This document shows, in pieces, positions 2,959 to 30,975 of a stretch of 64,000 nt of DNA. This DNA is from an uncultured Gammaproteobacteria bacterium. Its GTDB lineage: Bacteria; Patescibacteriota; Patescibacteriia; S139-126. Position numbers and translations under genes: made by a program. The stretch is taken from NCBI GenBank assembly GCA_964493305.1, contig CAZBLW010000002.1:258521-322520 (forward strand), read 5' to 3'. Numbering within the stretch: position 1 is the first letter of the stretch; each line of letters begins with the position of its first letter. The notes below the pieces were generated by a model. That model was not told the origin of the DNA. It saw only the letters and a list, made by a program, of their open reading frames with translations, and did not search any database.

Positions 2959-3930
2959 ATGATATTTAGTAAAAAGAAAAAAATTACGAAAGATTACATT
3001 TATCTCCTGGTGATATTAGGGTTGGTAATTTTCAATATATTTTGCTTGAGTAGATTATCCAATCCGGAAATTTTTATAGATAAATATGGAAAGTTGTATC
3101 CTTTTATTGATTTTTCCCGCAATTTTATACCGCAAGAGTTTTATTTGTCCAATCTGCAACCTTTGAGAAATAGTTTAAACGAACTAGTCAGCCAAGAACA
3201 GTCCCAAGGCAATCAAGTAAGTATTTATTTTGAGTATTTAAATACCGGCGGCAATATTTCCATCAATCAAAATTTGCAGCTGATTCCGGCCAGTCTCAAT
3301 AAACTACCAGTGGCGATGGCGGCGTTGGATAAAGTGGAAAAGGGTGAATGGTCTCTGACTGACAGGTTGGTATTATTGCCGGAAGATGTGGATTCTAATT
3401 TTGGCACATTACACCAAGAACCACTAAATAGCAGTTTTACCATAGAATTTTTACTGAAAGAGATGTTGCAAAAATCAGACAATACTGCTCTCAATATTTT
3501 ACTGAGAAATGTGACGGTTGACGGGGTGATAAAAATTTTAGATGAAATTGGTTTGCAGGAATTATTTGACGAGCGGGGAAATATTACGGCCAAAGAATAT
3601 TCGCAATTATTTCGTTCTTTATATACGGCAAATTTATTGAACCGCGAGTATTCGCAACTTTTATTGTCCTGGCTGACCCAGACCGAGTTTAATGAGTTTA
3701 TTTCCCATAATATTCCGGCAGAAGTTCCGGTGGCGCATAAGTTTGGTTTGAACATGGATTATTTGGTTTTTGCTGATTCCGGAATTGTCTATTTACCAAA
3801 CCAGCCTTACCTACTGACAGTTTTAGTCAATCCTGAAAACAGTATCACGGCCGATAGTGCTCTTGGGGAAGCTGGAGAAATAATGAATGAAATTTCAGTC
3901 ATTATTTATAAATTTTTAAATGAACAATAA
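2959..3930 (+). CDS. membrane-anchored class A beta-lactamase-like serine hydrolase (PenP/penicillin-binding fold)
   Basis: N-terminal TM helix. Motifs in class A order and spacing: S-x-x-K (ASLNKLPVAMAA), SDN (QKSDNTALNILL, compare SDNTAANLLL in TEM), a Glu-containing omega-loop-like TEFNEF, and KFG in place of KTG (VAHKFGLN). Confidence 0.65.
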   Translation: MIFSKKKKITKDYIYLLVILGLVIFNIFCLSRLSNPEIFIDKYGKLYPFIDFSRNFIPQEFYLSNLQPLRNSLNELVSQEQSQGNQVSIYFEYLNTGGNISINQNLQLIPASLNKLPVAMAALDKVEKGEWSLTDRLVLLPEDVDSNFGTLHQEPLNSSFTIEFLLKEMLQKSDNTALNILLRNVTVDGVIKILDEIGLQELFDERGNITAKEYSQLFRSLYTANLLNREYSQLLLSWLTQTEFNEFISHNIPAEVPVAHKFGLNMDYLVFADSGIVYLPNQPYLLTVLVNPENSITADSALGEAGEIMNEISVIIYKFLNEQ

Positions 3931-6900
3931 TTTCAAAAAAATTAAATATTTTTTTGTTCCGGTATTGGTTTTTTTGATGTTGATTACCGGTATTCCTTTG
4001 GATGTGCAGTTGAATGAGCGCGGGCGCATCGTGGACACCATGTATTTAGCAATGAAAGGCCAAGTCAATTTTTCTGATTTTTATTTTGGTAATACCGCCC
4101 GCGCCGAGACCAAAACCATTATTTTGAATTTTACCCAAACGATTTTGACCGAAGGCAATACCTGGACCGTGCCGCTTGATTGGGATAATGCATCCAATAC
4201 CATAGAAGTAATTGGCGGCGGCGGCGCGGGGTGGACGGATACGGCCGGTACCAATGGCGCTGGCGGCGGTGGCGGTGGGGCATATTCCAAGTCGGTCAAT
4301 GTCACTTTAAGTGCCGGAGCGACTGTTAGTTATAATATAGGTAATGGTGGCAATGTTTATTCAGTAAATGGTGGGGATACTTATTTTTGTAACTCCACCA
4401 CCAATTGTGCTTCTATCGGTGGTAGTGCGGTAGTAGTTGGTGCTAAAGGTGGCTTGGGCGCAATCAATGCCACTGGTGCGCAAGGCGGGGCAACTTCAAC
4501 AGGAGTAGCAACCGGAACTGGCTCTGTAAAATATAAAGGAGGTAATGGTGGAACAGGTAATGGTCGCGGTGATTCTGGTGGTGGTGGAGGTGGGGCCGCA
4601 GGCCCCAATGGCAACGGTGGTAATGGCGGTGATGGTAATAGTAATACTACCTATGGTCATGGCGGCGGCGGCGGCGGAAATGGCGGCGGCGCAAATGGCG
4701 CTTCAGTGAGTGGCAATCCGCCCAGCCCAAATCAAAGTGGTGCCGGGGGAAATAATTATTTAAATACTGGTGGCGGTGCAGGTGTAACTAGTGGTGATGG
4801 TACCAATGGTACAGCTGGCGGTGGCGGTGCAGGTGGTTTTGATTCCAATGACGGAGGCAACGGCGGTGATGGTCAGGAATGGGGAGAAGTTGGCTCTGGC
4901 GGCGGCGGTGGTGGAACCGGGGATACTTCAAGCACAGTTGGTTACGGTGGTGATGCCGGTTTTTACGGCGCGGGTGGTGGTGGCGGACTTATTGGAGGAC
5001 GTGGTGCTCCAGGTATAATTATTATTACTTATGGTTATAACCAACCAACCAAAACTATTTGGACTGTTCCAAGTGATTGGAACAATGCTTCCAACACCAT
5101 AGAAGTAATTGGTGCTGGTGGGGCTGGGTATACAGCAGTTGACAGCGGTGGTGCTGCCGCTGGTGGCGGTGGCGGTTATTCCAAATCTATCAATGTATCT
5201 CTAACTGCTAATACACAAGTAGCTTATCAAATTGGCAATGGTGGTAGAAAAAATGGGCGAGGTAGTGCTATAGCTGGATTGTCAGGAGGTGATACTTATT
5301 TTTGTAATGCTACTTCAAACTGTACAACGATTGCAGGTAGTGCAGTTCGAGTAGGTGCCAAAGGTGGCACGGGTGGTACCAGTGCAACCACTGGCGGAAG
5401 AACTGGTGGTGCAGCTGCTAGTGGAGTTGCTTATGCAAATGAAGTATTAAATGGTAGTGGTAGCCAAAAGTATAGCGGTGGTACGGGAGGAGCTGGTACT
5501 GGTACTGGTGATAATGGTGGTGGCGGTGGTGGTGCAGCTGGCCCCAATGGCAATGCCGGTGCTGGTGGAAGTGGTACCAATACTGCAACTTATGGTGGTG
5601 GTGGTGGTGGTGGTGCTGGTGGCACAGCTTGTAGTGGTTCACCGTGTGCTGGTAGTGGTCCAAATACCACTACAGGTGGTGCGGGAGGTAATGGTCCGGC
5701 TGGTACTGGCGGTGGCGCTGGAGGTAATCCTGGTCAAAATGGTGGTTCTGGTACAGGTGGTGGAGCGGGAGGTGGAAATAATATTTCCGGTGGAGGCTTT
5801 GGTGGCAGTGGAAGTGAGTGGACTATTGCCGGTGCCGGTGGTGGTGGTGGTGGTGTTGGTGATAACTCAGGTGCTGAAACCACTGGTGGTAATGGTGGTT
5901 TGTTTGGTGCTGGTGGCGGTGGTGGTAAATGGGGAGGTTGGGGAGCTAACGGTTTAATAGTTATTACTTATGTGCCCGCCGTATTTAGTCAATCGGCTTA
6001 TCGATTTTTTAACAATACAAATTCTACTGTTGTGGGAGCGCCTTTTACAACTCAAAATACAACCACAACAATTCCTTATAATTCTCAGTTTCGTTTACGT
6101 ATATTGATTCATGTAGCTGATGCACCTTTGGGTACCAGTGGTCGTGATTTTAAGTTACAATTTGTTGATATGGGCACCGGTACTTGTGCTGCTCCTAGCG
6201 GCGGTAGCCCGTCAAGTTATACTGATGTCACTTCTACTACAGCCATAGCTTATTTTAATAACCCCACACCAGTAGATGGAGATGCTTTAACTAGTACCAC
6301 TACCGACCCTACTCATAGTGGACATTCGTTGGTGAATCAAACATATGAAGAAGCTAATAATTTTACCAATTCTCAATCGCAGATTGATCCTGATTCGTAT
6401 GATGGTCTTTGGGATTTTTCTTTAGATGATTATAATGCTGAAATTGGTAAGACTTATTGTTTTCGTGCAGTTGAAGCAAATAGTAAACTTTTATCTAGTT
6501 ATAATATTTATCCTGCTGTGACTTTTATTAATTTCCCTCCTACCATCACGTCTGCTACGGACGCTCCTGATCCAGTGAACGCTGGTTCCAATATTACTTT
6601 TACGGTTGATTGGTCAGATGAAAATGCTGATAATACTCGTTCGTTTATCTGTAAAACCAATTCTTTTACTTCATCAACTCTTACTTGCCCTGGGGGAGCT
6701 TGGGCATCATCAACTTCTTTTGCTACCACTGACCCGGTTGATATGGTATATACCACGCAAGTAGCTGATGGTGGTACCAACAATTACTATGCCTTTACTT
6801 GTGATAATGATAATGCTTGTTCGTCTGGTAGCCCTGGTACTTTTACCGTTAATCGCTACCCAAGTATTACTTCGGTTAATGACGCTCCTGACCCAGTGAA

Positions 6901-7903
6901 CGCTGGTTCCAATATTACTTTTACGGTTGATTGGTCAGATGCTGATGCCGGCGATTTAACCCGTTCGTTTATCTGTAAAACCAATTCCTTTACTTCCTCG
7001 ACACTTACTTGTGATGGTGGTTGGTGGTCATCAAGTACCGCATTCGCTACTACTGATCCGGTAGATGTTATTTATACTACCCAAGGAGGGGATATTGGCA
7101 CCAATAACTACTATGCTTTTACTTGTGATAATGACAATGCCTGTTCGTCTGGCAGTCCTGGTACTTTTGATGTCAATTCAGGTAATTCCGCCCCAACTAT
7201 AAATTCAGCTACTGATTATCCCGACCCAGTCAGTGTTGGCAGTGCAGTTACTTTCACAGTTAATTGGTCAGACGCTGACACTGGTGATTTAACGCGCACT
7301 TTTATTTGTAAAACCAATTCTTTTACTTCATCTACTTTGACTTGTGACGGCGGGTCTTGGGCGTCAAGTACATCTTTTAGCTCTATTAATATAACAGAAG
7401 TTTTCTATACCGCTTTACTAGGTGATTTAGGAACCAAAAACTATTTTGCATTTGTGTGTGATGATAGTAATGCTTGTTCCAATGGTAGTGCTGGTACTTT
7501 TACAGTGGTTAAGAGTGCACCAATTATAAATTCAGTTATTGATGCCCCTGATCCAGTAGTCGCTAGTAATAATATTACCTTTACAGTTAATTGGACTGAT
7601 CCGGAAGGGGACAATGCTAGGTCTTTTATTTGTAAAACCAATGTTATTACCACTTCAACCCTAACTTGTCCAGGTGGTTGGTATGCTTCCAGTACTTCCA
7701 TGGCTGCCACCAATCCAGTGCAAATATCCTATACCGCTCAAGCTGGGGATGCTGGACCTAGGAGTTATTATGCTTTTGTCTGTGATAGTGATAATAAATG
7801 TTCTACAGCTACAGTTGGTTCATTTTTGGTCAACTTAACTAGTTCAGTCAGTGGATATATTGAAGGGATATTCAATATCCTTGGTGATGTATTATTTAGA
7901 TAA
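3920..7903 (+). CDS. giant glycine-rich membrane-anchored surface protein. It has two ~370-aa Gly-rich modules (phage-tail-fibre-like glycine-rich domain) followed by four ~110-aa Cys-containing tandem repeats.
   Basis: 1327-aa ORF with an N-terminal TM. Each Gly-rich module starts WTVPxDWxNASNTIEVIGxGGAG..GGGGG(A)YSKS and ends GAPGIIIITYGY / GANGLIVITYVP. This matches the T-V-P...VIGGGGGG...RIIW architecture I recall for the phage tail-fibre glycine-rich domain. C-terminal repeats: DAPDPVNAGSNITFTVDWSD..RSFICKTNSFTSSTLTC..YYAFTCDNDNACSSGSPGTFTV, four copies. Confidence 0.75.
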   Translation: MNNNFKKIKYFFVPVLVFLMLITGIPLDVQLNERGRIVDTMYLAMKGQVNFSDFYFGNTARAETKTIILNFTQTILTEGNTWTVPLDWDNASNTIEVIGGGGAGWTDTAGTNGAGGGGGGAYSKSVNVTLSAGATVSYNIGNGGNVYSVNGGDTYFCNSTTNCASIGGSAVVVGAKGGLGAINATGAQGGATSTGVATGTGSVKYKGGNGGTGNGRGDSGGGGGGAAGPNGNGGNGGDGNSNTTYGHGGGGGGNGGGANGASVSGNPPSPNQSGAGGNNYLNTGGGAGVTSGDGTNGTAGGGGAGGFDSNDGGNGGDGQEWGEVGSGGGGGGTGDTSSTVGYGGDAGFYGAGGGGGLIGGRGAPGIIIITYGYNQPTKTIWTVPSDWNNASNTIEVIGAGGAGYTAVDSGGAAAGGGGGYSKSINVSLTANTQVAYQIGNGGRKNGRGSAIAGLSGGDTYFCNATSNCTTIAGSAVRVGAKGGTGGTSATTGGRTGGAAASGVAYANEVLNGSGSQKYSGGTGGAGTGTGDNGGGGGGAAGPNGNAGAGGSGTNTATYGGGGGGGAGGTACSGSPCAGSGPNTTTGGAGGNGPAGTGGGAGGNPGQNGGSGTGGGAGGGNNISGGGFGGSGSEWTIAGAGGGGGGVGDNSGAETTGGNGGLFGAGGGGGKWGGWGANGLIVITYVPAVFSQSAYRFFNNTNSTVVGAPFTTQNTTTTIPYNSQFRLRILIHVADAPLGTSGRDFKLQFVDMGTGTCAAPSGGSPSSYTDVTSTTAIAYFNNPTPVDGDALTSTTTDPTHSGHSLVNQTYEEANNFTNSQSQIDPDSYDGLWDFSLDDYNAEIGKTYCFRAVEANSKLLSSYNIYPAVTFINFPPTITSATDAPDPVNAGSNITFTVDWSDENADNTRSFICKTNSFTSSTLTCPGGAWASSTSFATTDPVDMVYTTQVADGGTNNYYAFTCDNDNACSSGSPGTFTVNRYPSITSVNDAPDPVNAGSNITFTVDWSDADAGDLTRSFICKTNSFTSSTLTCDGGWWSSSTAFATTDPVDVIYTTQGGDIGTNNYYAFTCDNDNACSSGSPGTFDVNSGNSAPTINSATDYPDPVSVGSAVTFTVNWSDADTGDLTRTFICKTNSFTSSTLTCDGGSWASSTSFSSINITEVFYTALLGDLGTKNYFAFVCDDSNACSNGSAGTFTVVKSAPIINSVIDAPDPVVASNNITFTVNWTDPEGDNARSFICKTNVITTSTLTCPGGWYASSTSMAATNPVQISYTAQAGDAGPRSYYAFVCDSDNKCSTATVGSFLVNLTSSVSGYIEGIFNILGDVLFR
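6538..7830 (+). repeat. four in-frame tandem repeats (~321-335 bp each) inside the 3920-7903 gene. Repeats 1 and 2 are almost identical at the nucleotide level.
   Basis: 'acgctcctgacccagtgaacgctggttccaatattacttttacggttgattggtcagatg' recurs at 6561 and 6882. Diverged copies start at ~7217 and ~7541. Confidence 0.8.
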
Positions 7904-7906
7904 TTC

Positions 7907-10900
7907 ATGAACAAAAAATTTGTACAATTTATCGCCAATAAATATTTTCTGATTTTGATTTTCATCTTTTTAGTGCTGTCTGGGGCAATTTTTGCCTGGC
8001 AAATTTTTACCAATAACTCACAAATGAGTTTGCAGGTTAGTGTGCCGGACAACTATCAAGATAAGATTGTTTACTCCTACCAAGGACAGTCTTTTGCTAT
8101 TCAACCAATTGCTGCCAGTAGCGTCAATGTGAAAAAGAAATTTTTTGCTGAGGAGTATGATTATCAAGATCCTTATAGTAAGGTTGATGTTAAGCGGTTA
8201 GTATCAGAAACCGGAGTCAAAGAAGATATTGTTTTACGCGAACCAGGACATCCTATGCAGTTTAAGTTTCAGCTTGATTTGGGTGAGTTTGATTATGTCA
8301 AAGATTTGACTGGAAATATTACTTTGACCAGCAAAACAGATAAACTCGAGGAAAAAGATTTACAACGAAAATTTTTCTTGCCCGCACCGTTTTTTATTGA
8401 TGCCGCTGGTAAGCAGAGTGATACTAGTGCAATTGATTTACGAATAGATGATAAAGGTATTATTACTTATACCTTAAATGAGTCGTGGTTAGCGCAAGCT
8501 CAGTACCCAGTTGTACTTGACCCGTCAGTGGAATTGGTAATTTTAAATGTGCACTCTTATCCGCAAACCGGTGATGAATGGGTGGTTGATTTTACCACCC
8601 AAGGCACGGCTGATTTAATCATTTCTCCAGCTGATCAAGCCACGATTGATGATGACAGGTTTGTTGGACTTTATTGTGATGGTGAGGAAAGATTGCCAGA
8701 AATATACAAAAATGACGTAATTTTTTATGCCAATTGGTCGTGTGCTGGTGTGGGTAGAGTAGTTCATTTTACTGAGTATGCTGGTAAACACACTTTAAAG
8801 TTTGAATTTGCAGGACAAGTGGCTTATGCCTACAACTCTGATTGGTGGAATCCGTCTTGGACTAAGCGCAAAAAAATATTTTTTGATACTACTACTTCAG
8901 CTACCACTTCCAATTTGATTGATTTTCCTTTGAGTGTGCAGTTGAATTCTACCAGAGTTGACTATACTGCCACACAAAATAGCGGTCAGGATATTCGGTT
9001 TGTAGATACTGACGGTACCGAACTACCTTATGAAATAGAGTCCTGGAATGAGTCGGGCACTTCTACTTTGTGGGTAAAAGTACCTCAGGTAAATCAAAAC
9101 ACTACGGCCGATTATATGTGGATGTATTATGGTAACTCAACGGCAGCTGATAATTCAACAACTACAGGAGTGTGGGATAATAATTATAAACTAGTGCAAC
9201 ATATGGATAATACCGTTACTAGTACTGACAGCTTTGTTGATTCTACCAAAAATTATAATCACGGTACTGGTTTTGGTGGAGGTTCATTGGCAGCAACTAG
9301 CAGTGGAAAGATAAATGGAGCTTTTAATTTTGACGGTACTGACGATTATGTTGAAGTATCCAATGATAGTAGTCTAAGCGGAATGAATGAACTCAGTATG
9401 TCAGCTTGGATTTATCTTGATCAACTACCTACAACCGTAGCGCATGATGTTGAAATTTTAGTGAAAAGACATAGTACTACCCCTTGGAACTCATATTATT
9501 TTTATATTGTGGGTACAGCTTGTACAAATGATAATGTTATGTATGTCTCATTGAAAAATGAATTGGAAGCAGCGGAATATCGTTGCGCCAGTTCAAGTTT
9601 AGCCGTCGGTCAGTGGTACCATGTTGCGGTTACTTGGGATGGATCAGATCTTCATTTTTATCTAAATGGCTCATATGATGATGAGGGGGCTACCAATTTT
9701 TCTGGTACTAGTGTTTTTTCTTCTGATGGTTCCTTTTATATAAATGGTGAAGATAGTGGGCCGGGTAGAATGGATGGCAAGATTGATGAAGTACGTATAT
9801 CAAGTATTGACCGGGGAGTAAATTGGATAAAATTTGAATATTGTAATCAAACTGATAGTTGTACCACTTATGGAACGGAGGAAACTGATGTGTGGTGGAA
9901 TACCAAGTGGTTGAAGCGGAAAAAGATTATGTTTGATACCACTACCTCAGCTACTACCACTAGTTTAGTAGATTTTCCCGTAGCTGTGCAGTTAAATAGT
10001 TCACGTATTGATTATGCTTATACCAAACCATATGGTGAAGATATTCGTTTTATTGACTCTGATGGCAAAACTTCACTGTCATATGAAATAGAAAAATGGG
10101 ACAAAACCGCCACCTCTACTTTTTGGGTGAAAGTACCAACCATTGATCGCAATTCCAACTCCGATCATATCTGGCTTTATTACAACAATCCTAACGCTTT
10201 GGATAACTCCACTACCACAGGAGTGTGGACCAATGGTTTTGTCGGTGTCTGGCATATGAACAACGCATACAATGCCTCAACCACTGATTCAACCAAAAAT
10301 GCTTTGCATGGCATTTCCAGAAATCTCGCAGCCACTTCTACTTATATGGTTGGTAGTGCTTTACAGTTCAACGGTTCAACTGCTGATGTAAAATTGCCAA
10401 TCAGTACACTACTCAATCCCGAATACACTTTAACCATAGAAGCTTGGGCCAGAACCAATTCATTGTCAGGTGAACAATCAATTCTTGGTCGAACTTTATC
10501 ATATGAACTTTTAGCCATGAGAACTTGGGCGCCAACTGGCAGACCATTGGCTCCAATTTATTATGCTTATGATACCTCAATGGATTTGGAATCAGCTACC
10601 GCACTAACTCCAGGACAGTTTACCTATTTGGCAGCTACTTACAATGGCACTACTACGGGAAAAGCGATTTTATATCAAGATACTATTATTAAACATACTA
10701 TCACTACCACCACCCCAGAAAGTTTATATCAAAATTCGGCTAACACTTATATTGGTGATTCGCAGTGGGATGATAATTCTGGCTTCAGTGGTGTAATTGA
10801 TGAAGTAAGAATTTCTGATACAGACAGAACTAAAAGTTGGATAAATTTTACTTATTGTAATATTAAAGAAACTTGTAATACTTACGGCAAAGAACAAACC

Positions 10901-14377: not shown

Positions 14378-14465
14378 TTATAATGATTTAAGATTTAAGA
14401 ATAAAGATTTAAGAATTTACCCTTATTTAATTGCCTTGCACCTTAGACAGAAATTAAAAATAAAA

Positions 14466-14650
14466 TGTTTTACCTCTATTTTTTGTCAGTCCCGCGGACG
14501 CGGGATAGCAAAAACTGCCGACCAGCGCTTCCGTTCAGGTAAAATTGCCAACCGTTCGCGCGCCTCTCAAAATCTCTTACGCTTTAGTTGAGAGGCGTAA
14601 CCGCTCACTACTTGGCAATATTTACACTTCAGGAAGCGGAAGGTCGGAAA
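14466..14650. ncRNA. candidate structured RNA / conserved structured element, copy A
   Basis: Second copy at 44052-44250. Shared T-rich leader, GC hairpin, outer stem CCGACC...GGTCGG, conserved stem aattgccaa...ttggcaat, inner stem gcctctcaa...ttgagaggc. Confidence 0.35.
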
Positions 14651-14725
14651 GAAATTCAAAATAAAAATTATAAAATTAAAAAATTCATTAGTTATTAGTA
14701 ATTAGAAATTAGTAATTAAAATATT

Positions 14726-14814
14726 TGTCATTCCGTGCTTGACACGGAATCCAGAAACAAAAATAGATTCCTGCTCGAGTTTATCCCGCACTTGATGCGG
14801 GACAGGAATGACAA
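14726..14814. repeat. MITE-like element, full copy
   Basis: tgtcattccgtgcttgacacggaatccagaaacaaaaatagattcctgctcgagtttatcccgcacttgatgcgggacaggaatgacaa. Confidence 0.7.
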
Positions 14815-14897
14815 GGATAAAAGTTTAAAAATTCAGATTTATTTAAAAATTACAAAATTAAAAATTAAAAAATTCATTAGTTATTAGTAATTAAAAA

Positions 14898-15004
14898 ATG
14901 AAGTTTTCTTTTCCCCAACTAAATATATTAAAGTCCTTAAAACGAGTTCCAGGTAACAAGGAATATAATTGTCATTCCGAACTTGTTTCGGAATCTAAAA
15001 AATA
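14898..15004 (+). pseudogene. orphan duplicated 5' end (about 21 codons, out of frame) of the giant-protein gene family, interrupted by a half MITE
   Basis: atgaagttttcttttccccaactaaatatattaaagtccttaaaacga encodes MKFSFPQLNILKSLKR, homologous to the N-termini at 15005 (MKLKFSKLNIVKTLKR) and 20946 (MHFSFPQLNILNALKR). It is followed by ttgtcattccgaacttgtttcggaatc and a stop, then the real start at 15005. 15005 minus 14898 is not a multiple of 3. Confidence 0.5.
14970..15000. repeat. MITE half-element (first hairpin only)
   Basis: ttgtcattccgaacttgtttcggaatctaaaaaat. Confidence 0.6.
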
Positions 15005-18000: not shown

Positions 18001-20806
18001 TACTTCCAGTATTTCTATTGTGACTGGTCATGTGTCATCTACGGCTAATTTTATTTTGGGCACAGGTTTTACCAATGATTATATCGGTAAACTTGATGAT
18101 GTTAGAATTTATAATTATGCGCGCAATCAGCGGCAAATACTTGAAGACATGAATGCTGGGCGAAAAAACAATCCGATTGGGTATTGGAGTTTTGATGAAG
18201 GACAGGGAGGTACAGCACATGATAGTAGTTATTTAGCTGCACTTGGTTCGGGAAATAATGGTACATTGATTAATATGACAACCAGTGGCCCAAGTTCTGT
18301 TTGGTCGCCAAGTGGTAAAGCTGGCAAAGCTTTGCAGTTTGATGGGTCAGATGATGTTGTAACCATAACCAATAATAACATTACCAACTATAATCAAAGT
18401 CGTTCAGTTAGTTTGTGGTTTAAAACAAATACTTTAGGCAGTCAAAAAGGTATAATTGGCACAGGCAATACAGTTTTAGAATCTGCGCCTTTTTGGTTAC
18501 TTACTCAAAGTGATAGTAATAAAATATCACTTTATCATTCAGGCTATTATGATGGGACTACTACTTTAGAAAGAAACAAGTGGTATCATTTGGTTTATAC
18601 TTACGATCGCCCTAGAAATTATTTGGTTTTGTATTTAGATGGGAAAGTTGAATATGCAGGCACTGCGAATGAAGCTGATAATAATAAAAATAATATTTAT
18701 ATTGGTGGGGGCTGGGGAGGGTATTTCAATGGCCAGATTGATGAAGTGAAAATATACAATTATCCCATCACTGTTGATGAAATCAGACAAAATTACAATG
18801 TTGGTCAGCAGATTGTTTTGTCACGTAGTGCCAATGACAATTTGACCGACGGACTACTGGCTTATTGGCCGATGGATGGTGACCTGACTGATGCCAGTGG
18901 CAATGGCAATACGGGAACAGCTTCAGGAGCAACAGCAACAACTTCAGCCATGTTTGGCCAAGCTTATGCAATCAATGCTGGGACAAATTATATTTCAGTT
19001 CCCACTTCTGCTTCACTTGATTCCTATACTGATAAATTAACAGTGTCAGGGTGGTATTATTTTAATACCCTTGCTCCTACCCAGCAATGGTTATTTGATA
19101 AAGGTTTAAATTATTATTTACGAGTAACCAGCGCCGGTGGATTTACCAACTATCTATTTGGTATCAACAATGAAGATTATTGGTCAACTCAAAATAGTTT
19201 AGTTACAGCTGGTGAGTGGTATTATATTGTTTTTACTTATGATGGCCAGGAACGAAAATTGTATATTAATGGTGAATTAAAAGAGAGTAAAGCAGATACT
19301 GGCACTATAGATAACGGTGGTAATTTGACTATTGGCAATCGTGCTGGGCATAGTGAGCCAATGGACGGGCAGGTAGATGATATAAAAATTTATAATCGCG
19401 TACTGTCAGCTGATGAAATTGCGCAAAATTATGTAAATACTCCAGGACCGGTGGCTTATTGGAAAATGGATGAAGGAACAGGGCAAACGTCAAATGATAG
19501 TAGTAATTACAATAATACTTTACGACTCGGTTTGGATAGCCGCAGCCCAAGTTGGCAACCAATAGGTAAAATTGGTAGCGCTTTAAATTTCAATGATGCC
19601 AATCCCGAAGATTGGGCTGGTGCATCAAGTACTGATAGTTTGAATATTGCCGGGAAAATTACTTTGGAGGCTTGGGTACGTTTACGAAGTTATGATGGCT
19701 ATTTTATGGATGTTGTCTCCAAAGACAATAGTTCCAATTTTTCTTATTGGCTGGGGATTGATAATGTTACTGCTCGACCGATGATGATATTGACCAATGA
19801 TGGTTCTACTCAGTACCAAGCTTATGGCGCAGAGGCATTGGAAGAAAATAAATGGTATCATCTGGCCGGTGTTTATGATGGTTCGCAAATGAGAGTTTAT
19901 GTAAATGGAGTTTTAGCTTCCAACGGCTCTAGCAATCCCAGATCATATTCATCTGGTATTTATCAAAATGTCAATTCAGATGTCAATGTTGGTTACAGTC
20001 AATCATGGGCGAATAACGGTTGGGATGGTGATATTGATGAGGTAAAAATTTACAATTATGCTCGTACGCAGCGGCAAATTTTGGAAGATATGAATGCTGG
20101 TCGAAAAAATAACCCAGTTGCCTATTGGAAATTTGATGAGGGTTCAGGAGAAGTAATTCATGATTTTTCTGGCAACAGTCACAATGGTACTTTGATAGTA
20201 GGCAGTGGTGGCACTCAGTCAGCTACCAGTTCCATTTGGACCAATGGTTTATCAGGTAAAATAAATGGTTCACTTAATTTTGATGGTACTGACGATATTG
20301 TCAATATGGGAACAAGTACAGCATTCAATATTGCCACTGGTACTGTATCGGTTTGGTTTAATTTAAATAGCCACACTATACTTGATAAAACAATTATTGG
20401 TAAAGATTTAAGTGGAGGTAATAATGGTGATTTTAATTTACGAGTAGCTGAATCTGATGATGCCACCAATCCCAGTAAGATAGAATTTAAGACTGAGAAT
20501 GGTGGCTCAAGTTATTATGTTGCCAGTGATAATATTGCCCCTACCAATGAATGGGTTCATGTGGCTGTTTTGTTTGGTGATGGTGGGATGAGAATGTATG
20601 TTAATGGAATTTTACAAAAATCTACTGCCTCACAAGTTTATGGTATGACTAATGCTTCTGCAAATTTATTTATAAGTGCTTCAGCTACCGGTAATACTGA
20701 TTATTTTAATGGTAAAATAGATGAAGCGAAGATTTACAATTATCATCTTACCCCTGAAGAAATCAAACAAGAATACAATGGGGGGTTTAGTAGTTATTTT
20801 AGATAA
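15005..20806 (+). CDS. giant (1933 aa) membrane-anchored surface protein: DUF2341-like module plus about nine LamG-like jelly-roll modules
   Basis: N-terminal TM (WLAVLAVVVLAMAASFYFF), then WWDEDWHYRMKMTVDATKIDSDLTNFPVAIVL (DUF2341-like). Repeated LamG hallmark endings: YLDEVKVYNYAKTADQV, LDDFRIYNRALSPDEVRRLSEW, LDDVRIYNYARNQRQILEDM, IDEVKIYNY, VDDIKIYNRVLSADEIAQNY, IDEAKIYNYHLTPEEIKQEY. Confidence 0.8.
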   Translation: MKLKFSKLNIVKTLKRFQGDKRTWLAVLAVVVLAMAASFYFFRNQSPEAVAGWWDEDWHYRMKMTVDATKIDSDLTNFPVAIVLTTSNFTYANAQSAGQDIRFTDANGNTLYHEIEKWNSSATSTIWVKVPMVDDTTDTTLYMYYGNLAVADGQNKTAVWDEGFVMVQHMNNTATGTDSFVDATKYNNHGTGAGSGTSLVATSSGIIDGAFEVDGIDDRVEVPNDSSLSGMSQLTMSGWVYFDQLPSVIGHEGLLMVKRHEGEPYDSYYLDIVGSSGCASPNVMLATIKNQVEGTDYKCANTSLTANQWYYIASTWDGSNIHFYLNGVNDDYGDTTFSGTSVFVSDGILYINSDDSTGGRIDGKIDDVRISKIARPAAWLRADYYNGINNLLTLAAEEKGPGPVAYWGFEEGYGNSIADLSGNGHTLTASSTVWKTDSECLRGKCLYFDGTTSVATTTNTNALNISGSEITLTSWFKPITFSGKKMLLDKGSYAVHWNYGFGLNNSGLLMRHNNGDKTTNNVTLGLNEWHQFTAVYSGGNDYFYIDGVLVESMSDTSWSENTGTQQLTLGAAWQDGVGYSEFFHGYLDEVKVYNYAKTADQVKTDYNKNMAVMLGTNEYTSLSDGLLLQWQMDEQTWNGTSGEVKDSSGSGNHGTADSALATSTAKFNRAGNLDGDTDMVNINPAGTNLANLATSSVTMSIWLKTNTVVKSFADISNTGGSTQFLHLVNDHDIVRAYFYLNGDGTQKVLESDSGSITVGQWYHMAVTRDYQTGDTILYLDGVEVDRLQAIGTTGYAPTNIGLGNGSNYCFDGQLDDFRIYNRALSPDEVRRLSEWAPGPVTHWKMDETSWNGTTNEVKDSSVNGLHGESTGSGTYVSPLGKYGSAGYFDGTSYLDFGNPSGEVLDPGMRNFTFSTWIKTSNTANARIFEKRASGYDGFEFGIGTGGNWMYFIGDNTNRSWSDSLGTAGILSDDQWHHVAYVVDRKNSIISFYKDGILNTTSSISIVTGHVSSTANFILGTGFTNDYIGKLDDVRIYNYARNQRQILEDMNAGRKNNPIGYWSFDEGQGGTAHDSSYLAALGSGNNGTLINMTTSGPSSVWSPSGKAGKALQFDGSDDVVTITNNNITNYNQSRSVSLWFKTNTLGSQKGIIGTGNTVLESAPFWLLTQSDSNKISLYHSGYYDGTTTLERNKWYHLVYTYDRPRNYLVLYLDGKVEYAGTANEADNNKNNIYIGGGWGGYFNGQIDEVKIYNYPITVDEIRQNYNVGQQIVLSRSANDNLTDGLLAYWPMDGDLTDASGNGNTGTASGATATTSAMFGQAYAINAGTNYISVPTSASLDSYTDKLTVSGWYYFNTLAPTQQWLFDKGLNYYLRVTSAGGFTNYLFGINNEDYWSTQNSLVTAGEWYYIVFTYDGQERKLYINGELKESKADTGTIDNGGNLTIGNRAGHSEPMDGQVDDIKIYNRVLSADEIAQNYVNTPGPVAYWKMDEGTGQTSNDSSNYNNTLRLGLDSRSPSWQPIGKIGSALNFNDANPEDWAGASSTDSLNIAGKITLEAWVRLRSYDGYFMDVVSKDNSSNFSYWLGIDNVTARPMMILTNDGSTQYQAYGAEALEENKWYHLAGVYDGSQMRVYVNGVLASNGSSNPRSYSSGIYQNVNSDVNVGYSQSWANNGWDGDIDEVKIYNYARTQRQILEDMNAGRKNNPVAYWKFDEGSGEVIHDFSGNSHNGTLIVGSGGTQSATSSIWTNGLSGKINGSLNFDGTDDIVNMGTSTAFNIATGTVSVWFNLNSHTILDKTIIGKDLSGGNNGDFNLRVAESDDATNPSKIEFKTENGGSSYYVASDNIAPTNEWVHVAVLFGDGGMRMYVNGILQKSTASQVYGMTNASANLFISASATGNTDYFNGKIDEAKIYNYHLTPEEIKQEYNGGFSSYFR

Positions 20807-20862
20807 AAAATGTTAATTATAAATTGTAAATTTTAAATTATAAATGAATTATAAAATTACAA

Positions 20863-20882
20863 CCTGCCTGCCGGCAGGCAGG
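20863..20882. repeat. perfect 20-bp palindrome cctgcctgccggcaggcagg in the intergenic region between two giant genes
   Basis: Read directly from the sequence. Related to the second hairpin of the MITE (gattcctgc...gcaggaatc). Confidence 0.6.
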
Positions 20883-20945
20883 AATTAAAAATTATAAAAT
20901 TAGTAATTCATTAGTTATTAGTAATTAGTCATTAGTAATTTATCC

Positions 20946-23900
20946 ATGCATTTTTCTTTTCCCCAACTAAATATATTAAATGCCTTAAAACGAACCAAAG
21001 TTAACAAAGGTACTTGGTTGGCTATTTTTGCAGTAGTGGTTTTGGTTTTGGCTAGTTCTTTTTACTTCTTTCGTAAAGATTCCCCAGAAGCAGAAGCTTC
21101 TTGGTGGGATGAAGGTTGGTATTATCGTAAAGCCTTAGTAGTTGACTATACCAAAGTAGATAGTGAATTAACCAACTTTCCCATAGCTGTCCAGTTTAAC
21201 ACCACCAACAATATCTATAATAATACCAATAGTGATGGCTCTGATCTTAGGTTTACTGATAACAATGGTAATCTCTTAAACTATGAGATAGAAAAGTGGA
21301 ATGAATCAGGCACTTCTACTGTTTGGGTAAAACTACCCACTGTTTATGCTACTGCTTCTACTACTTTTTATATCTACTATGGCAATCCTACTGCCACTGA
21401 TGCTCAAACACCTACTGAAGTCTGGGATGATAACTTTGTGGGGGTGTGGCATATGGCGCAAGATCCATCAATTGCTGGTGCCAGTATTTTAGATTCTACC
21501 AGCAAGCAAAGCAACGGCTCACCCCTGGGGTCGATGACTACTGATGATTTGATAGATGGCCAGTTGGGTCAAGCTTTGGATTTTGATGGTTCAAATGACA
21601 CAATCAATTTTGGCAATGGAACTGATTTCAATTTGACTAGTGAATATACTTTTTCAGCGTGGATAAATTATAAACGAACCCTACTTCAAACTTTATTTGC
21701 CAAAAGTAGTTCTTATCGTTGCCGCGTACAAGCTACTAGTGATACTTTGAGTATTTACAATTTTACCGATACGACCGATACCAATGTCAATGCCATATTG
21801 ACCGTACCAAAAAACGAATGGTCATATGTGTCTTGTGTTTATGATAGTACCAATGGTGGTAAAGCATATTTAAACACCAGCACCAACACCGGACCTACTC
21901 CAGGCAGTGGTAATCTTGATCAAACAAGCGAAAATGTTTATTTAGCTTCTTTGAACAATAGTAGTAGGTTTATGCAAGCCTTTATAGATGAGGCTAGACT
22001 TTCCAAAGTCAGAAGAAGTGATGCCTGGATAAAAGCCGATTATTATAGCGGTTTAGGTACACTTTATACCCAATTGTCTGAAGAACAAGGTCCAGGGCCG
22101 GTGGCTTATTGGAGTTTTGATGAAGGGTATGGGACTACTGCCAATGACTATTCAACTGGCGGTAATAACGGCACTATCACCGGCGCTACTTGGAAAGATA
22201 GTTCAGAGTGCGTAAAAGGTAAATGTTTATTTTTTAATGACAACGGCTATGTTCAGATGAATACTACCACGACATTGGCAAAAAACAATTTTACGATTTC
22301 AGCATGGTTTAAAACTGATAGCACTGCTGATGATAAGATTATTTCTTTTGGTACATCATACCATCCTTTGCAGATTTTAAATGGCAATTTTCGTGTTTGT
22401 ATGAATGGTTGCTCAGTTGGCACTCGTATATTTAATGATAATATATGGCATCACGCACTTATTGTCGGAGATCAATCTTCTATCCGAGTATATGTTGATG
22501 GACAATTAGAAATAACTCAAGGGGTAACAAGTGGTGATATGGCTGGTATTTTACGTATTGGTGCTGTCGGTGCAGATGGTGGTGGTACGAGTCCTACTTA
22601 TTATTTTAAAGGTTATATTGATGAAGTAAAAGTTTATAACTACGCTCGCAGTGCTGATCAAATCAGACAAGATTACAATAAAGGTTTTAACATCGCTTTA
22701 GGACAAGCCAATCAATACAATAGTTTGTCAGATGGTTTGGTTGGGTGGTGGCCCATGGATGAACAAACTTGGAATGGAACCTCTGGTGAAGTACTTGATA
22801 TGAGTGGCAATAACACCACCGGTACAGCTACCAATGCCAATACCACATCCACCGCTAGATTTGGTAGAGCTGGAAGTTTTGATGGTGATAGTGATTATGT
22901 TGAGTTGAATAATAATTCTAAAATTGCCAATTTAAACTCATCTAGCTTCACTATGGCTGGCTGGATTAGAACCACTGATATTACAAAAGAATGGCAAGGT
23001 ATTTTTGGTACTGACAACAGTCTTAGTTTTTTCGCAATTTATTTGCAAAGTGATGTCTATGCCTATACCTATATGGATGGACAGGTTGGAAATATTCGTA
23101 CACTTCACTCTGGCGCCAATTCTATAAAAAATAATACTTGGTATCATATTGCCGCCACCAGAGATTATCAAACTGGAGTTACTAATTTGTATTTAGACGG
23201 TAAATTGGTAGATACTTTTACAGCTTTAGGTAATGCTGGTGATCCACAAAATGGACTATATTTGTCTGTGGATGGTGCCAATAGCTTCAAAGGACAACTT
23301 GATGATATGCGTATATATAACCGCGCACTATCAGCTGATGAAGTCAGGCGTTTGTCTGAGTGGGCACCAGGGCCAGTATTATATATGCCTTTAGATGAAG
23401 CATCTGGAAGTAGTGTGTATGATAAAAGTGGAAATAATTTAAGTACAACGACAATCGGTTCACCAACTTGGTTAGACGGAAAATATGGTTCAGCTTTGCA
23501 TTTCAATGGTTCTACCCAAAAAATTGATTTAGGTAATAGTTCAAATTTACAATTAACAAATGGAACAGTTGAAGCCTGGATTAAAACCAGTGATGCCGGA
23601 ACGACGTATCGAGGTATTGTGGCCAAACAAAATGCCTATGGTATGTTTTTAAATGATAATGTTTTTGGAATATATGATTGGGGTGGAAGTGGGTGGCACA
23701 CGTCTGGCGTTAGTTTAAATGATAATCAGTGGCACCATGTCGCTTTTTCTTTTCAGAGTGGAATTGCCAGCGGTACTATTTTATATATCGATGGTATTCC
23801 TAAGTTGATAACAACAATGACAGTATCCAATCAAACTGCTTCATTGCAAATTGGTGAAGCAAATTCTAATCAGTATTTTGCAGGAGAAATTGATGATATA

Positions 23901-25949
23901 AAAATATACAATTATGTTCGTAACCAGCGGCAGATACTTGAAGATATGAACGCTGGTCGACCAAACAATCCGGTAGCGTATTGGAGTTTTGATGAAGGTC
24001 AAGGAAGTTATGCTAATGACTATAGTGGTTATAATCATCGAGGGACTTTAGGTTGCTCAGGTACAGGTTGTTCGTTACCTGAATGGAAAACTGGTGTAAG
24101 AAATACTGCTTTTTACTCAGATCCAGCAACAACTACAGAAAAACAATGCGTCTCACTTACTACTACAAATTTGAATATTTCTAGTGCTACCGGGACATCT
24201 GTTAGTATGTCGGTTTGGTTGAATGCTTCCACAACTCAGATAAGTAGTGGTGGGGGTTGGGTGCTTCGTCGGGGTTCAGGAACTGATGAAAATTATAGTA
24301 TGATTTTAGTTGCCAGTGGAGGAAAATATAAAGTTAAGCTGGAAGGTTATGATGGTATTACCTTTAGAAGCGGAACTTCCAATGGTGCTTATATAACACC
24401 TGGCGAGTGGACTCATGTCGTGATGATTTATAAACAAGGGATTGGTTTTGATCTGTATATCAATGGTGTATTTAAGGAAACTGTCAGTTATCCCTATATC
24501 AATTTGACTGGCACAAGTTTTGCGATTGCTTGTGGTGGTGGTAGTAATCAGTCTTACAATGGTTATATTGATGAATTGAAAATATATTTGTATGAGCTGA
24601 CCATGGATGAAATCAGAAAAGATTATAATTTTGGTTTACAAAATGTTTTAAGTCAGCCAGCGGTAAATACTCAAAGTGCTCCGACTTCTTCTTTAGCATA
24701 TTGGAAGTTTGATGATATGACAGGAACTACAGCTGTGGATAGTACTGGTAATGGTAAAAGTGGTAATTTTGGTGGTAGTCCGACGTGGACAGTTGAAGGT
24801 AAAAATGGCGGTGCTTTGTCTTTCAATGGCAGTAGTGATTATGTATCAGTCACAAATGATAGCGATTTAAATTTTGGTACCAGCAGTTTCTCAATAAGTT
24901 ATTGGACCAAATCAAATTATCCTTCAGGCACCAGAGGTTTTATTCAAAAAGGATCTGGACCTTTCAATACTGCTGGCACTGGTTGGCAACTGCGTCAAAA
25001 TGGAACTTTATTTGAATTTGCCCGTAATAATGGTGGTGCTAATCCAACCCGTTTATCAACCAGTTTATCTGCCTGGTCAGGCAAATGGGTAAATGTAATT
25101 GTGACTTACAATTATAGTACTGGTGATGCCAAGCTTTATGTCAATGGAAGTTATATTGATACAGTAAATTATACTGGTGACTATGTAGATTCTTATAATT
25201 TAGAAATAGGGCGAGGTAATGATGGATATTTCAGTGGCATGATTGATGATGTAAAACTTTATAACTATGTTTTAACTGACAGAGATATTATTATGGAATA
25301 CAATGGTGGCGCGCCAGTGGGTTATTGGAGTTTTGATGAAGGTCAAGGCGAAACCGTATTTGATAGGAGCGGCAATGGCAATAATGGCACATTAATTGTG
25401 GGTTCAGGTGGCACTCAGTCAGCTACTAGTTCCGCCTGGGCCAATGGCGTGGCAGGTAAAATAAATAGTTCTCTTAGTTTTGATGGTAGTAATGATGAAG
25501 TTATAATGCAAGGTCCTGAGCTATCTGTTAATGCTACTATAAGTGGATGGTTTTATTGGGTGGGTGGTGTCACTAGTTTAATAAGAGATAACACTGGAGG
25601 TAATGGTTGGATATTGGGTTATAACAGTGGTGATATTTTAAGATATCGGGTTGGTGGGATTGAGTTTAACACCAATATAAATGTTAGTAGCTTGCAAAAT
25701 AAATGGGTTCATTATGCTGTTACAAAAAATGCGAGTACAACAAATTATTATATTGATGGTGTTTTAAAATTTACAGGAACAACCGCAGCTAATGTTACTA
25801 GTACTATGCCATGGCATATAATGAGAAATGGCACAATTGCAAGTTATATATCTGGTAAAGCAGACGAAATAAAAATTTGGAATTATGCCTTAACTTCAGA
25901 TGAAATCAAACAAGAGTATAATGGAGGGTTTAGTAGTTTTTTTAGATAA
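20946..25949 (+). CDS. giant (1667 aa) membrane-anchored surface protein, paralog of the 15005-20806 gene (DUF2341-like plus about eight LamG-like modules)
   Basis: N-terminus, linker peptides (YNYARSADQIRQDYNKGF; NRALSADEVRRLSEWAPGPV; NYVRNQRQILEDMNAGRPNNPVAYWSFDEGQG) and the C-terminal ..EIKQEYNGGFSSFFR are near-identical to the previous gene. The two share stretches of DNA identity. Confidence 0.8.
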   Translation: MHFSFPQLNILNALKRTKVNKGTWLAIFAVVVLVLASSFYFFRKDSPEAEASWWDEGWYYRKALVVDYTKVDSELTNFPIAVQFNTTNNIYNNTNSDGSDLRFTDNNGNLLNYEIEKWNESGTSTVWVKLPTVYATASTTFYIYYGNPTATDAQTPTEVWDDNFVGVWHMAQDPSIAGASILDSTSKQSNGSPLGSMTTDDLIDGQLGQALDFDGSNDTINFGNGTDFNLTSEYTFSAWINYKRTLLQTLFAKSSSYRCRVQATSDTLSIYNFTDTTDTNVNAILTVPKNEWSYVSCVYDSTNGGKAYLNTSTNTGPTPGSGNLDQTSENVYLASLNNSSRFMQAFIDEARLSKVRRSDAWIKADYYSGLGTLYTQLSEEQGPGPVAYWSFDEGYGTTANDYSTGGNNGTITGATWKDSSECVKGKCLFFNDNGYVQMNTTTTLAKNNFTISAWFKTDSTADDKIISFGTSYHPLQILNGNFRVCMNGCSVGTRIFNDNIWHHALIVGDQSSIRVYVDGQLEITQGVTSGDMAGILRIGAVGADGGGTSPTYYFKGYIDEVKVYNYARSADQIRQDYNKGFNIALGQANQYNSLSDGLVGWWPMDEQTWNGTSGEVLDMSGNNTTGTATNANTTSTARFGRAGSFDGDSDYVELNNNSKIANLNSSSFTMAGWIRTTDITKEWQGIFGTDNSLSFFAIYLQSDVYAYTYMDGQVGNIRTLHSGANSIKNNTWYHIAATRDYQTGVTNLYLDGKLVDTFTALGNAGDPQNGLYLSVDGANSFKGQLDDMRIYNRALSADEVRRLSEWAPGPVLYMPLDEASGSSVYDKSGNNLSTTTIGSPTWLDGKYGSALHFNGSTQKIDLGNSSNLQLTNGTVEAWIKTSDAGTTYRGIVAKQNAYGMFLNDNVFGIYDWGGSGWHTSGVSLNDNQWHHVAFSFQSGIASGTILYIDGIPKLITTMTVSNQTASLQIGEANSNQYFAGEIDDIKIYNYVRNQRQILEDMNAGRPNNPVAYWSFDEGQGSYANDYSGYNHRGTLGCSGTGCSLPEWKTGVRNTAFYSDPATTTEKQCVSLTTTNLNISSATGTSVSMSVWLNASTTQISSGGGWVLRRGSGTDENYSMILVASGGKYKVKLEGYDGITFRSGTSNGAYITPGEWTHVVMIYKQGIGFDLYINGVFKETVSYPYINLTGTSFAIACGGGSNQSYNGYIDELKIYLYELTMDEIRKDYNFGLQNVLSQPAVNTQSAPTSSLAYWKFDDMTGTTAVDSTGNGKSGNFGGSPTWTVEGKNGGALSFNGSSDYVSVTNDSDLNFGTSSFSISYWTKSNYPSGTRGFIQKGSGPFNTAGTGWQLRQNGTLFEFARNNGGANPTRLSTSLSAWSGKWVNVIVTYNYSTGDAKLYVNGSYIDTVNYTGDYVDSYNLEIGRGNDGYFSGMIDDVKLYNYVLTDRDIIMEYNGGAPVGYWSFDEGQGETVFDRSGNGNNGTLIVGSGGTQSATSSAWANGVAGKINSSLSFDGSNDEVIMQGPELSVNATISGWFYWVGGVTSLIRDNTGGNGWILGYNSGDILRYRVGGIEFNTNINVSSLQNKWVHYAVTKNASTTNYYIDGVLKFTGTTAANVTSTMPWHIMRNGTIASYISGKADEIKIWNYALTSDEIKQEYNGGFSSFFR

Positions 25950-27519: not shown

Positions 27520-27520
27520 A

Positions 27521-27590: not shown

Positions 27591-27594
27591 TTAG

Positions 27595-29924: not shown

Positions 29925-29976
29925 TCATTTTAGCAATCGAAAAATGTAAATTCACCCAAGTAGAATTTGGTCATGC

Positions 29977-30966: not shown

Positions 30967-30975
30967 ATTAAATCC

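Follow-up and report, generated by a model that had tools for sequence, protein, structure and literature searches.

The stretch of DNA analysed here (the window: 64,000 nt of contig CAZBLW010000002.1, forward-strand positions 258,521 to 322,520) codes for a block of four consecutive giant proteins, genes 1 to 4, in which genes 2, 3 and 4 form a lineage-specific insertion of variable copy number. The three inserted genes carry DUF2341 and LamG modules. Comparison with related loci indicates a cassette-like exchange of single LamG modules and of part of the gene 2 beta-helix module; DUF2341 modules, protein termini and flanking genes are kept. This exchange is the main new fact of the present work. 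Judged from their domains and fold models, the products of genes 2 to 4 are probably exported modular surface proteins with an adhesin or recognition role, binding glycans or a partner cell, and under diversification.

The four open reading frames (ORFs) lie on the + strand at positions 3920-7903, 7907-14377, 15005-20806 and 20946-25949. They are intact and, as described in a first-pass annotation made from the sequence alone, consecutive, and code for 1327, 2156, 1933 and 1667 amino acids (aa), a sum of 7083 aa over 22.0 kb in the ORF listing. An assembly artefact of frameshifted repeats was ruled out. The ORFs have no frameshifts, the LamG modules of the window are only 22-49% identical to one another and the DNA repeats in the array reach at most 88% identity. 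A Logan contig from an independent assembly encodes an identical gene 3, and loci orthologous to the array are present in several other assemblies; together these observations show that the array does not result from misassembly. Each of the four proteins has exactly one hydrophobic segment at its amino terminus in a Kyte-Doolittle scan, in agreement with the annotation. This segment could be a membrane anchor or a cleavable signal peptide. AxA-type sites follow the hydrophobic segments of the giants (e.g. ..SPEAVA/GWWDEDW in gene 3, the slash marking the candidate cleavage position), which keeps a cleaved signal peptide among the options, and sites like PEAVA/GWW of gene 3 suggest cleavage.

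The two families named in the annotation were recovered by Pfam in genes 2, 3 and 4 at scores far over the gathering thresholds (23.4 bits for DUF2341, PF10102; 27.6 bits for Laminin_G_3, PF13385). DUF2341 is matched in gene 2 (E 6e-58, 193.7 bits, 4 stretches), gene 3 (E 1.5e-14, 54.7 bits) and gene 4 (E 7e-16, 58.9 bits). The serial LamG modules noticed at first sight correspond to 4 stretches of Laminin_G_3 in gene 2 (E 2e-65, 219.8 bits), 8 in gene 3 (E 2e-191, 629.1 bits) and 7 in gene 4 (E 6.5e-139, 458.5 bits). Domain boundaries were taken from a hidden Markov model (HMM) iterated on the window's own modules, which yields module counts that agree with Pfam. The annotation had considered the whole block to be built from DUF2341, LamG and beta-helix modules; this stands for genes 2 to 4 and fails for gene 1, where Pfam finds none of them.

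The gene 2 protein (2156 aa) is composed of a hydrophobic amino terminus, an N-domain (aa 37-310; 8015-8836), three DUF2341-LamG units (aa 311-648, 661-986 and 999-1340; 8837-11926), the beta-helix module, a fourth DUF2341-LamG unit (aa 1789-2117; 13271-14257) and the cationic tail KVKGGIQIKGGIRFK, the units being delimited with Pfam and the iterated HMM. The N-domain is a distinct module ahead of the first DUF2341, which begins at residue 311; the view that genes 2 to 4 all open with DUF2341 is correct for genes 3 and 4 only. Searched alone, the N-domain hits no Pfam family at E<=1. There are 1182 cluster representatives with a match to it at E<=1e-3, 160 of them at E<=1e-30, and in most of the 150 matches listed it starts within about 100 residues of the amino terminus. 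Gene 2 also contradicts the claim that Cys-rich regions are confined to gene 1: it holds 19 Cys, mostly in conserved C-x5-C (YCNxxxxC) pairs closing each DUF2341-LamG unit, compared to 24 Cys in gene 1. Gene 3 (1933 aa; 15005-20806) codes for a hydrophobic amino terminus, a DUF2341 module (aa 51-175) and eight LamG modules (aa 202-1927), and ends in ..GGFSSYFR. Gene 4 (1667 aa; 20946-25949) is its collinear diverged paralog (35% identity), with DUF2341 at aa 51-175, seven LamG modules (aa 202-1661) and the end ..GGFSSFFR.

The comparison among relatives suggested with the annotation showed that presence and copy number of genes 2 to 4 vary between related loci. The insertion site lies between gene 1 (or the gene in its place) and the first gene of the conserved downstream set (26407-27519 in the window). 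It holds no giant gene in loci L005, L036 and L037, of which the last two are close relatives with a downstream gene 78% identical to that of the window. L006, L035 and L002-L004 each have one giant (gene 3 type), L026/L027 have two (one of gene 2 type, one of gene 3 type), as does L038, and the window has three, its gene 4 being absent from all relatives examined. The flanking genes of the window and L026 are 81-90% identical.

The exchange of modules is seen in the alignment of gene 2 with its L026 ortholog, to which it is 69% identical by BLASTP and 70% by global alignment. Nucleotide identity is 73-90% along most of the gene and drops sharply to 36-63% at the codons for aa ~421-640 (LamG1), ~1111-1310 (LamG3) and ~1500-1770 (distal part of the beta-helix). 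At the protein level the DUF2341 modules are 87-97% identical, LamG2 88% and LamG4 83%, while LamG1 and LamG3 are only 30% and 31% identical and the beta-helix 60%. The gene 3-type protein of L026 is 37% identical to gene 3, with about 80% identity in the amino-terminal ~100 residues and in the carboxyl-terminal residues. The cassettes that look foreign in such pairwise comparisons have close relatives elsewhere. LamG1 of window gene 2 has 77% identity with LamG1 from the gene 3 ortholog in L003, LamG7 of window gene 3 has 71% identity with LamG2 of this same ortholog, a module at a different position, and LamG7 of window gene 4 is 70% identical to LamG8 of the L006 gene 3, both being the last module of their protein. 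These relationships indicate that LamG modules have been exchanged between positions, paralogs and strains. The pattern is the one that would be expected for specificity-determining modules under diversifying pressure. A diversity-generating retroelement was set aside as its source: no reverse transcriptase was found among the ORFs scanned, which did not comprise every small ORF, and the divergent segments are whole modules of ~180 aa at ~30% identity rather than A-specific changes in one short variable repeat.

The DUF2341-LamG unit was modelled with AlphaFold2 for residues 45-395 of gene 3 from 47 sequences. The model has a predicted local distance difference test score (pLDDT) of 89.9 and a predicted template modelling score (pTM) of 0.91, on the basis of which the DUF2341 beta-sandwich and the LamG jelly-roll are predicted to pack as a single rigid two-sandwich unit. 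The LamG half displays in the model the jelly-roll beta-sandwich fold of Laminin_G_3. Its Foldseek matches (E ~1e-9 to 1e-10, probability 1.00) are the receptor-binding, lectin-like Hc-N domains of tetanus and botulinum toxins, the carbohydrate-binding domain 4 of the arabinanase AbnA and pentraxin, and it matches trans-sialidase lectin domains too. Similarity to Hc-N, AbnA domain 4 and pentraxins, which have the ConA-like lectin/glucanase fold, corresponds to a template modelling (TM) score of about 0.45-0.5 over ~245 columns, at 11-17% identity and in a locus whose surroundings are not those of a toxin, GH43 enzyme or pentraxin. For the DUF2341 half, the top structural matches include no solved counterpart, and a PDB sequence search with the complete unit gave no match.

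The unit is widespread in bacteria and archaea, including proteins named MshQ by their source and fusions to MotA/ExbB. The association of DUF2341 with LamG was described in archaeal proteins encoded at type IV pilus loci (arCOG03508, PMC4858521) and in the MotA/ExbB fusions (PMC12505986). All these proteins share with the array the same adjacent DUF2341-LamG pair. In contrast to them, the giants of the window occur without a pilus operon, a prepilin signal or a MotA/ExbB channel domain, the unit is present four times in gene 2, and 6-7 extra LamG modules follow it in genes 3 and 4. The sole NCBIfam match is to TafC (NF052521), the tip adhesin of haloarchaeal Tat-fimbriae, whose LamG domain was proposed to be adhesive (PMC11821415). 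Membership in this family was rejected. The scores of 240 and 191.6 bits are below the cut-off of 410, the match covers only model positions ~148-361, which correspond to the LamG part, and the giants share this domain with TafC but have neither a Tat signal nor a pilin-like donor-strand N-domain.

DUF2341-LamG proteins are found also in phages. On one IMG/VR contig (L030, 4660-7344) such a protein is encoded between a homolog of the central tail fibre protein J and tail-fibre proteins, and on another (L028, 5887-7230) it adjoins tape-measure-like and tail proteins. These phage-contig proteins are 30-35% identical to the gene 3 unit. Their presence in phage modules for host recognition provides independent support for a binding role of the unit.

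The beta-helix module of gene 2 (aa 1341-1788; 11927-13270) is a right-handed parallel beta-helix preceded by an N-terminal beta-barrel and ended by a WDIGADE cap motif. The pectate-lyase-like beta-helix of the annotation is correct at the level of the three-dimensional fold. At the sequence level, residues 1341-1790 have no Pfam match even at E<=1, the Beta_helix family with PbH1 repeats (PF13229) included. The segment has 173 homologs from many phyla, mostly stand-alone proteins of 430-790 aa; a few carry PF13229, type IX secretion system (T9SS), cohesin or prepilin domains. Residues R19, D59, D64, R80, R110, R197, H198, D424, R430 and D439 are near-invariant in the family and this Arg/His/Asp set hints at a conserved functional site. 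The closest known beta-helix systems are the polysaccharide lyases PL6 BcAlyPL6 (7dmk) and PL9 Pel9A (1ru4), rhamnogalacturonan (RG) lyase 5olq, PfbA and Rhombotarget A. The gene 2 module differs from these lyases and binders by its low identity (7-15%; 9-14% for the PL6/PL9 lyase families), the absence of a Pfam Beta_helix match, the extra N-terminal beta-barrel and its position embedded between DUF2341-LamG units. The module may equally well be an enzyme that processes polysaccharide or a binder. An origin of gene 2 from an ancestor composed of the N-domain and the beta-helix was considered and dropped, since only one protein (P0162) of 120 beta-helix homologs has this arrangement.

Gene 1 is a protein of a different kind. 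It is preceded by a gene for a Beta-lactamase2-like serine hydrolase (2959-3930, + strand; PF13354, E 1.3e-41) with SxxK, SDN and KFG motifs in the alignment, and direct reading of the sequence shows that the stop of this gene overlaps the gene 1 start by 11 nt; gene 2 begins 3 nt past the gene 1 end. The gene 1 protein (1327 aa; 3920-7903) has a hydrophobic amino terminus, a conserved 'handle', a tandem pair of glycine-rich modules (about aa 65-385 and 386-700; 4112-6019), a middle region and four repeats of ~108 aa with four conserved Cys each (6557-7849), which were delimited from direct repeat families D3, D8 and D12 and the Cys positions; it ends in ..GDVLFR. The GGN codons of the glycine-rich modules account for the 52% GC and the GC skew of 0.34 at 4-6 kb. 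No match to gene 1 was obtained in Pfam, NCBIfam or PDB sequence searches; Gly_rich_2 (PF21722) is not matched by gene 1 or its modules, and sub-regions searched at E<=1 gave only noise. However, glycine-rich module 1 aligns with the PF21722-annotated region of homolog P0033 (BLASTP E 2e-21, 54% identity), and P0003, a positional ortholog of gene 1, scores 23.7 bits against a gathering threshold of 24.3. From this alignment and near-threshold score gene 1 appears to be a divergent relative of Gly_rich_2, of the same type in its glycine-rich modules though itself below the Pfam threshold. Its Gly_rich_2 homologs often bear LamG and DUF2341 too.

A context survey anchored on the beta-lactamase-like gene yielded 19 loci (L005-L023) from GTDB representative genomes. 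A gene order typical of the Candidate Phyla Radiation (CPR) recurs across them: the beta-lactamase-like gene is followed by a large variable protein of 600-2140 aa and then by WxLIP-like, DUF4215/dockerin and C-terminally anchored proteins that form a conserved set. The start of the variable protein overlaps the upstream stop or is within about 45 nt of it in all loci but L017, where a 370-aa ORF lies in between. The bodies of the slot proteins are wholly different between CPR loci (Kelch, BNR, FN3 or Gly-rich). An N-terminal handle, formed by a transmembrane segment and the motifs [G/N]xP[L/F]D, [R/K]x[I/V]VD and AxA, is common to 14 of the 16 aligned positional homologs, the proteins of L011 and L013 being divergent. 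This slot for a large variable surface protein translationally coupled to the beta-lactamase-like gene is a definition of the present analysis and not a curated family. Gene 1 has both the overlap with the Beta-lactamase2-like gene and the handle, features that genes 2 to 4 lack. By synteny, gene 1 occupies a slot conserved across CPR while genes 2 to 4 are outside the conserved plan.

The 19 loci are nearly all labelled as Patescibacteria lineages (Paceibacterota, Parcubacteria, Falkowbacteria, Moraniibacteriota, Gracilibacteria and 'Saccharibacteria'), and homolog names include Paceibacterota and Moranbacteria. Judging from these relatives, the host of the array is a Patescibacterium (CPR). 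The closest GTDB representative scanned is L006 (CAZUKA010000001.1), with a beta-lactamase-like gene 75% and a downstream gene 88% identical to those of the window. L006 is labelled 'uncultured Gammaproteobacteria bacterium', yet it has the same CPR-type gene order and the label is probably a taxonomic mislabel.

The four giants have a further common trait at their carboxyl termini, which read ..GDVLFR (7889-7900), ..GGIRFK (14330-14374), ..SSYFR (20789-20803) and ..SSFFR (25932-25946). No other of the window's 54 stop-to-stop ORFs with 100 aa or more ends in F[RK]. The same Phe-Arg/Lys ending is found in orthologs or neighbours from L002, L006, L026, L035 and L038. Upstream partial ORFs of L035-L037 and L039 that match gene 1 best among the window's genes (45-50% identity along part of its length) end in ..LKGGSVQGGRLK, ..IKGGEIKGSRLK or ..KGGRLRGGVRLK. 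Within a set of 149 representatives that carry the N-domain and differ in length and domains, 19 have the F[RK] end, when the internal dipeptide frequency predicts 0.5 (P 7e-24). K/R is the ending of another 34 of the 149, in many cases preceded by tandem amphipathic units like VRIKGGTRLKGGVRIK, IKLRSGTIKLR and ILKEKTILKKKTILK; a strict two-unit pattern exactly at the carboxyl terminus occurs in 6 proteins versus 0.03 expected. The gene 2 tail KVKGGIQIKGGIRFK is a canonical example of a tandem cationic amphipathic end. No NCBIfam model matches the tail and no description of it was found.

CPR cells have a wall and lack an outer membrane. The proposal made here is that a short cationic tail with a hydrophobic-Phe-Arg/Lys end acts as an envelope-retention or sorting tag. 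In a broader and tentative version of this proposal, 1-3 short cationic amphipathic units (as in KVKGGIQIKGGIRFK or VRIKGGTRLKGGVRIK) that end precisely at the carboxyl terminus in hydrophobic-[F/I/L/V]-[K/R] might be an undescribed tag that retains or sorts the four giants, together with a large superfamily of CPR surface proteins assembled from these shuffled parts, and the exchanged LamG cassettes might be determinants of the episymbiont's host range; the locus would then be a compact testable model of partner switching in CPR. A link of the tail with the adjacent beta-lactamase-like enzyme is pure speculation; in distant CPR genomes this enzyme is paired with proteins that have another C-terminal domain, ending in ..TVVYTATAQY.

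The favoured reading of genes 2 to 4 can be set out as follows. The export-type hydrophobic amino terminus would direct the proteins through Sec export to display at the cell surface. DUF2341 would be packed against the first LamG module, to which gene 3 adds seven and gene 4 six further divergent LamG modules, and each of these modules may expose its own ligand-binding face, the most likely ligands being glycans or glycoproteins in the envelope or matrix of partner or host cells. In gene 2 the beta-helix would bind or cut polysaccharide, and the cationic tail would retain the proteins on the envelope. Module exchange would diversify recognition specificity or provide escape from phages or hosts that target the giants. 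The lectin-like or adhesin array of the first-pass annotation is consistent with the fold matches, the use of the unit in phage tail fibres, the variation in copy number and the cassette swaps; the block is heterogeneous, however, gene 1 being a different kind of protein. The long stalks and the membrane anchoring of that annotation are assumptions. Several points weigh against this interpretation. Enzymes too bear Laminin_G_3 modules, as appendages that bind carbohydrate and have no adhesive function. The case for surface exposure comes only from one hydrophobic N-terminal segment, and dependence of the organism on a host or partner is assumed from its phylum. The cassette-like divergence could arise partly from relaxed constraint and not from selection. 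The tail is reduced or degenerate in genes 1, 3 and 4, the representatives behind its statistics share the N-domain and are not fully independent, and it could be a structural strand without a sorting role.

Extracellular polysaccharide processing, with LamG as carbohydrate-binding modules, the beta-helix as an active lyase or hydrolase that would harvest sugars or open a way through capsule or EPS, and a nutritional or invasive role, is a rather unlikely function for the array. It would make sense of the near-invariant charged residues in the beta-helix family and of the LamG matches to AbnA domain 4 and trans-sialidase lectin domains. Genes 3 and 4, however, have no candidate catalytic domain by Pfam or the iterated HMM, and no CAZy-type Pfam family was matched. 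It is also improbable that the giants are adhesins linked to type IV pili, as proposed for MshQ and archaeal DUF2341 proteins. A role as pilus component or adhesin was predicted for DUF2341 proteins (PMC4858521, PMC11809585), the source name of one homolog is MshQ, and the prepilin motif PF07963 is present in some homologs of the beta-helix module and of LamG, but the giants themselves do not match PF07963, their amino termini are basic-hydrophobic without a G/FxxxE motif, and no type IV pilus gene was found among the window ORFs scanned. Eight loci have a pair of ORFs of ~570 and ~405 aa located 1-3 kb upstream of the beta-lactamase-like gene; the pair of L017, the only one checked, is pilB and pilC by Pfam. 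The loci with such a pair lack LamG/DUF2341 giants, so that any link to pili would concern the slot of the beta-lactamase-like gene and gene 1, not genes 2 to 4.

A phage ancestry has been weighed too, in which genes 2 to 4 would be receptor-binding (tail-fibre) genes derived from a phage or prophage and resident in the chromosome. This is highly improbable. The LamG parts match PHROG virion and tail families (e.g. phrog_8510, E 1e-95), matches that are explained by the LamG domain alone. DUF2341-LamG proteins do occur in real phage tail modules and ConA-like lectin genes are present in CPR phages (PMC12911398); nevertheless, the amino termini of the giants are hydrophobic export signals, and in several relatives the block keeps its place in the chromosome, bordered by the same genes. 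The search of the block and its surroundings gave no capsid, terminase, portal or integrase, and for want of these hallmark genes a prophage origin was rejected. There is likewise little probability that the giants form a structural or protective coat of the envelope, such as an S-layer-like fuzz or a phage decoy, made variable by pressure from phages or predators and devoid of specific ligand binding. Variability in copy number and cassettes with conserved termini is also a signature of escape at phage receptors, and giant membrane proteins of Vampirococcus were linked to its fibrous surface (PMC8080830). Binding is favoured over a coat by the LamG/ConA-like folds and by the phage tail-fibre use of the unit, and no self-assembly or SLH-type domains were found by Pfam.

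Patescibacteria account for much of bacterial diversity, and their presumed way of life is attachment to other microbes. To our knowledge, almost nothing is known on what sets their choice of partner. Giant lectin-domain proteins are the usual suspects for partner binding and are normally just listed in genome papers. Giant CPR proteins with DUF2341 or lectin repeats have already been proposed as adhesins (PMC11809585, PMC8080830, PMC12911398), and the adhesin reading favoured for genes 2 to 4 is the standard hypothesis of the literature, not a new inference. The DUF2341/FhaB giants of Patescibacterium danicum (PMC11809585) and the Vampirococcus giants (PMC8080830) belong to the same phylum, have an N-terminal membrane or export segment and DUF2341 and/or lectin-like repeats, and reach thousands of residues; their adhesion role was assigned from domains only. 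They exceed 4 kaa, compared to 1.7-2.2 kaa for the proteins described here, which lack FhaB or autotransporter parts and are distinguished by their organization as a tandem paralog array with a defined insertion site and documented variation in copy number and cassettes. The locus adds to these precedents a defined site with 0 to 3 giants among strains whose flanks are 78-90% identical, an exchange at module level that points to particular LamG modules, and the beta-helix, as the variable parts that may bear specificity, and a recurrent cationic tail as a possible anchoring or sorting signal. The general picture is unchanged; what is gained are concrete constructs and comparisons for work on binding, localisation and host range.

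The right border of the variable array is occupied by a small PDDEXK_3 gene (PD-(D/E)XK nuclease family; 25991-26401, + strand; PF13366, E 1.5e-36), which is not at that position in L006, L026 and L035. It is followed by the conserved downstream cluster of surface proteins (26407-34739, + strand), identified by Pfam and by synteny across CPR loci, which forms the right-hand border of the insertion. The cluster codes for two secreted proteins (370 and 378 aa), two WxLIP-like membrane proteins (352 and 329 aa), a protein with DUF4215 and dockerin, and two C-terminally anchored proteins. Its organization resembles the WxL loci of Gram-positive bacteria (L040-L051 compared), with secreted proteins ending in ..TVVY(V/I)ATA(N/Q)Y that alternate with WxLIP_PGBD-like membrane proteins; the sole Pfam support for this likeness is a WxLIP match of 29.7 bits. 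In distant CPR genomes the domain of the 370-aa protein is the C-terminal domain of proteins of 1400-2900 aa. On the other side of the block, a 721-aa protein (137-2302) with a Thr/Ser-rich carboxyl terminus has no Pfam or PHROG match. It corresponds to the C-terminal part of a protein of more than 1330 aa in L026 (1-4002; 83% identity), and its gene is probably truncated by the window start.

Scans of the window for sigma-70 promoters (92 found, 77±9 expected) and terminators (16 found, 12±3 expected) gave numbers at chance level. The spacer between genes 2 and 3 contains a short ORF or remnant (MKFSFPQLNILKSLKR...; 14898-15005, + strand; repeat family D17) with a copy of the 5' end from a gene 4-type paralog. 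This copy is 82% identical to the gene 4 start, includes promoter-proximal DNA and the first codons, and is followed by a palindromic element directly upstream of gene 3. The short ORF is kept in L026 (~16890-17003) despite gene 3 bodies that are only 37% identical, and is either a recombination scar or a leader ORF. The palindromic element, TTGTCATTCC-N(8-10)-GGAATC and its reverse complement, is dispersed in intergenic DNA with at least 16 copies in 64 kb (2424, 14727, 14805, 14971, 43848, 43904, 44008, 46732, 46786, 55261, 55338, 58274, 58614, 58638, 58695 and 62954), three of them within the spacer between genes 2 and 3. It looks like a repeat of the repetitive extragenic palindromic (REP) or miniature inverted-repeat transposable element (MITE) kind. 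A perfect direct repeat of 456 nt is present at 51938-52393 and 54609-55064. Each copy contains an identical gene for a 119-aa four-helix-bundle protein (23S_rRNA_IVP, PF05635), and the pair brackets a Wzy_C+TPR gene at 52422-54614. The repeat may have arisen by recent duplication, may reflect mobility of the small gene or may be an assembly problem; a PF05635 gene is found also between genes 2 and 3 in relative L026.

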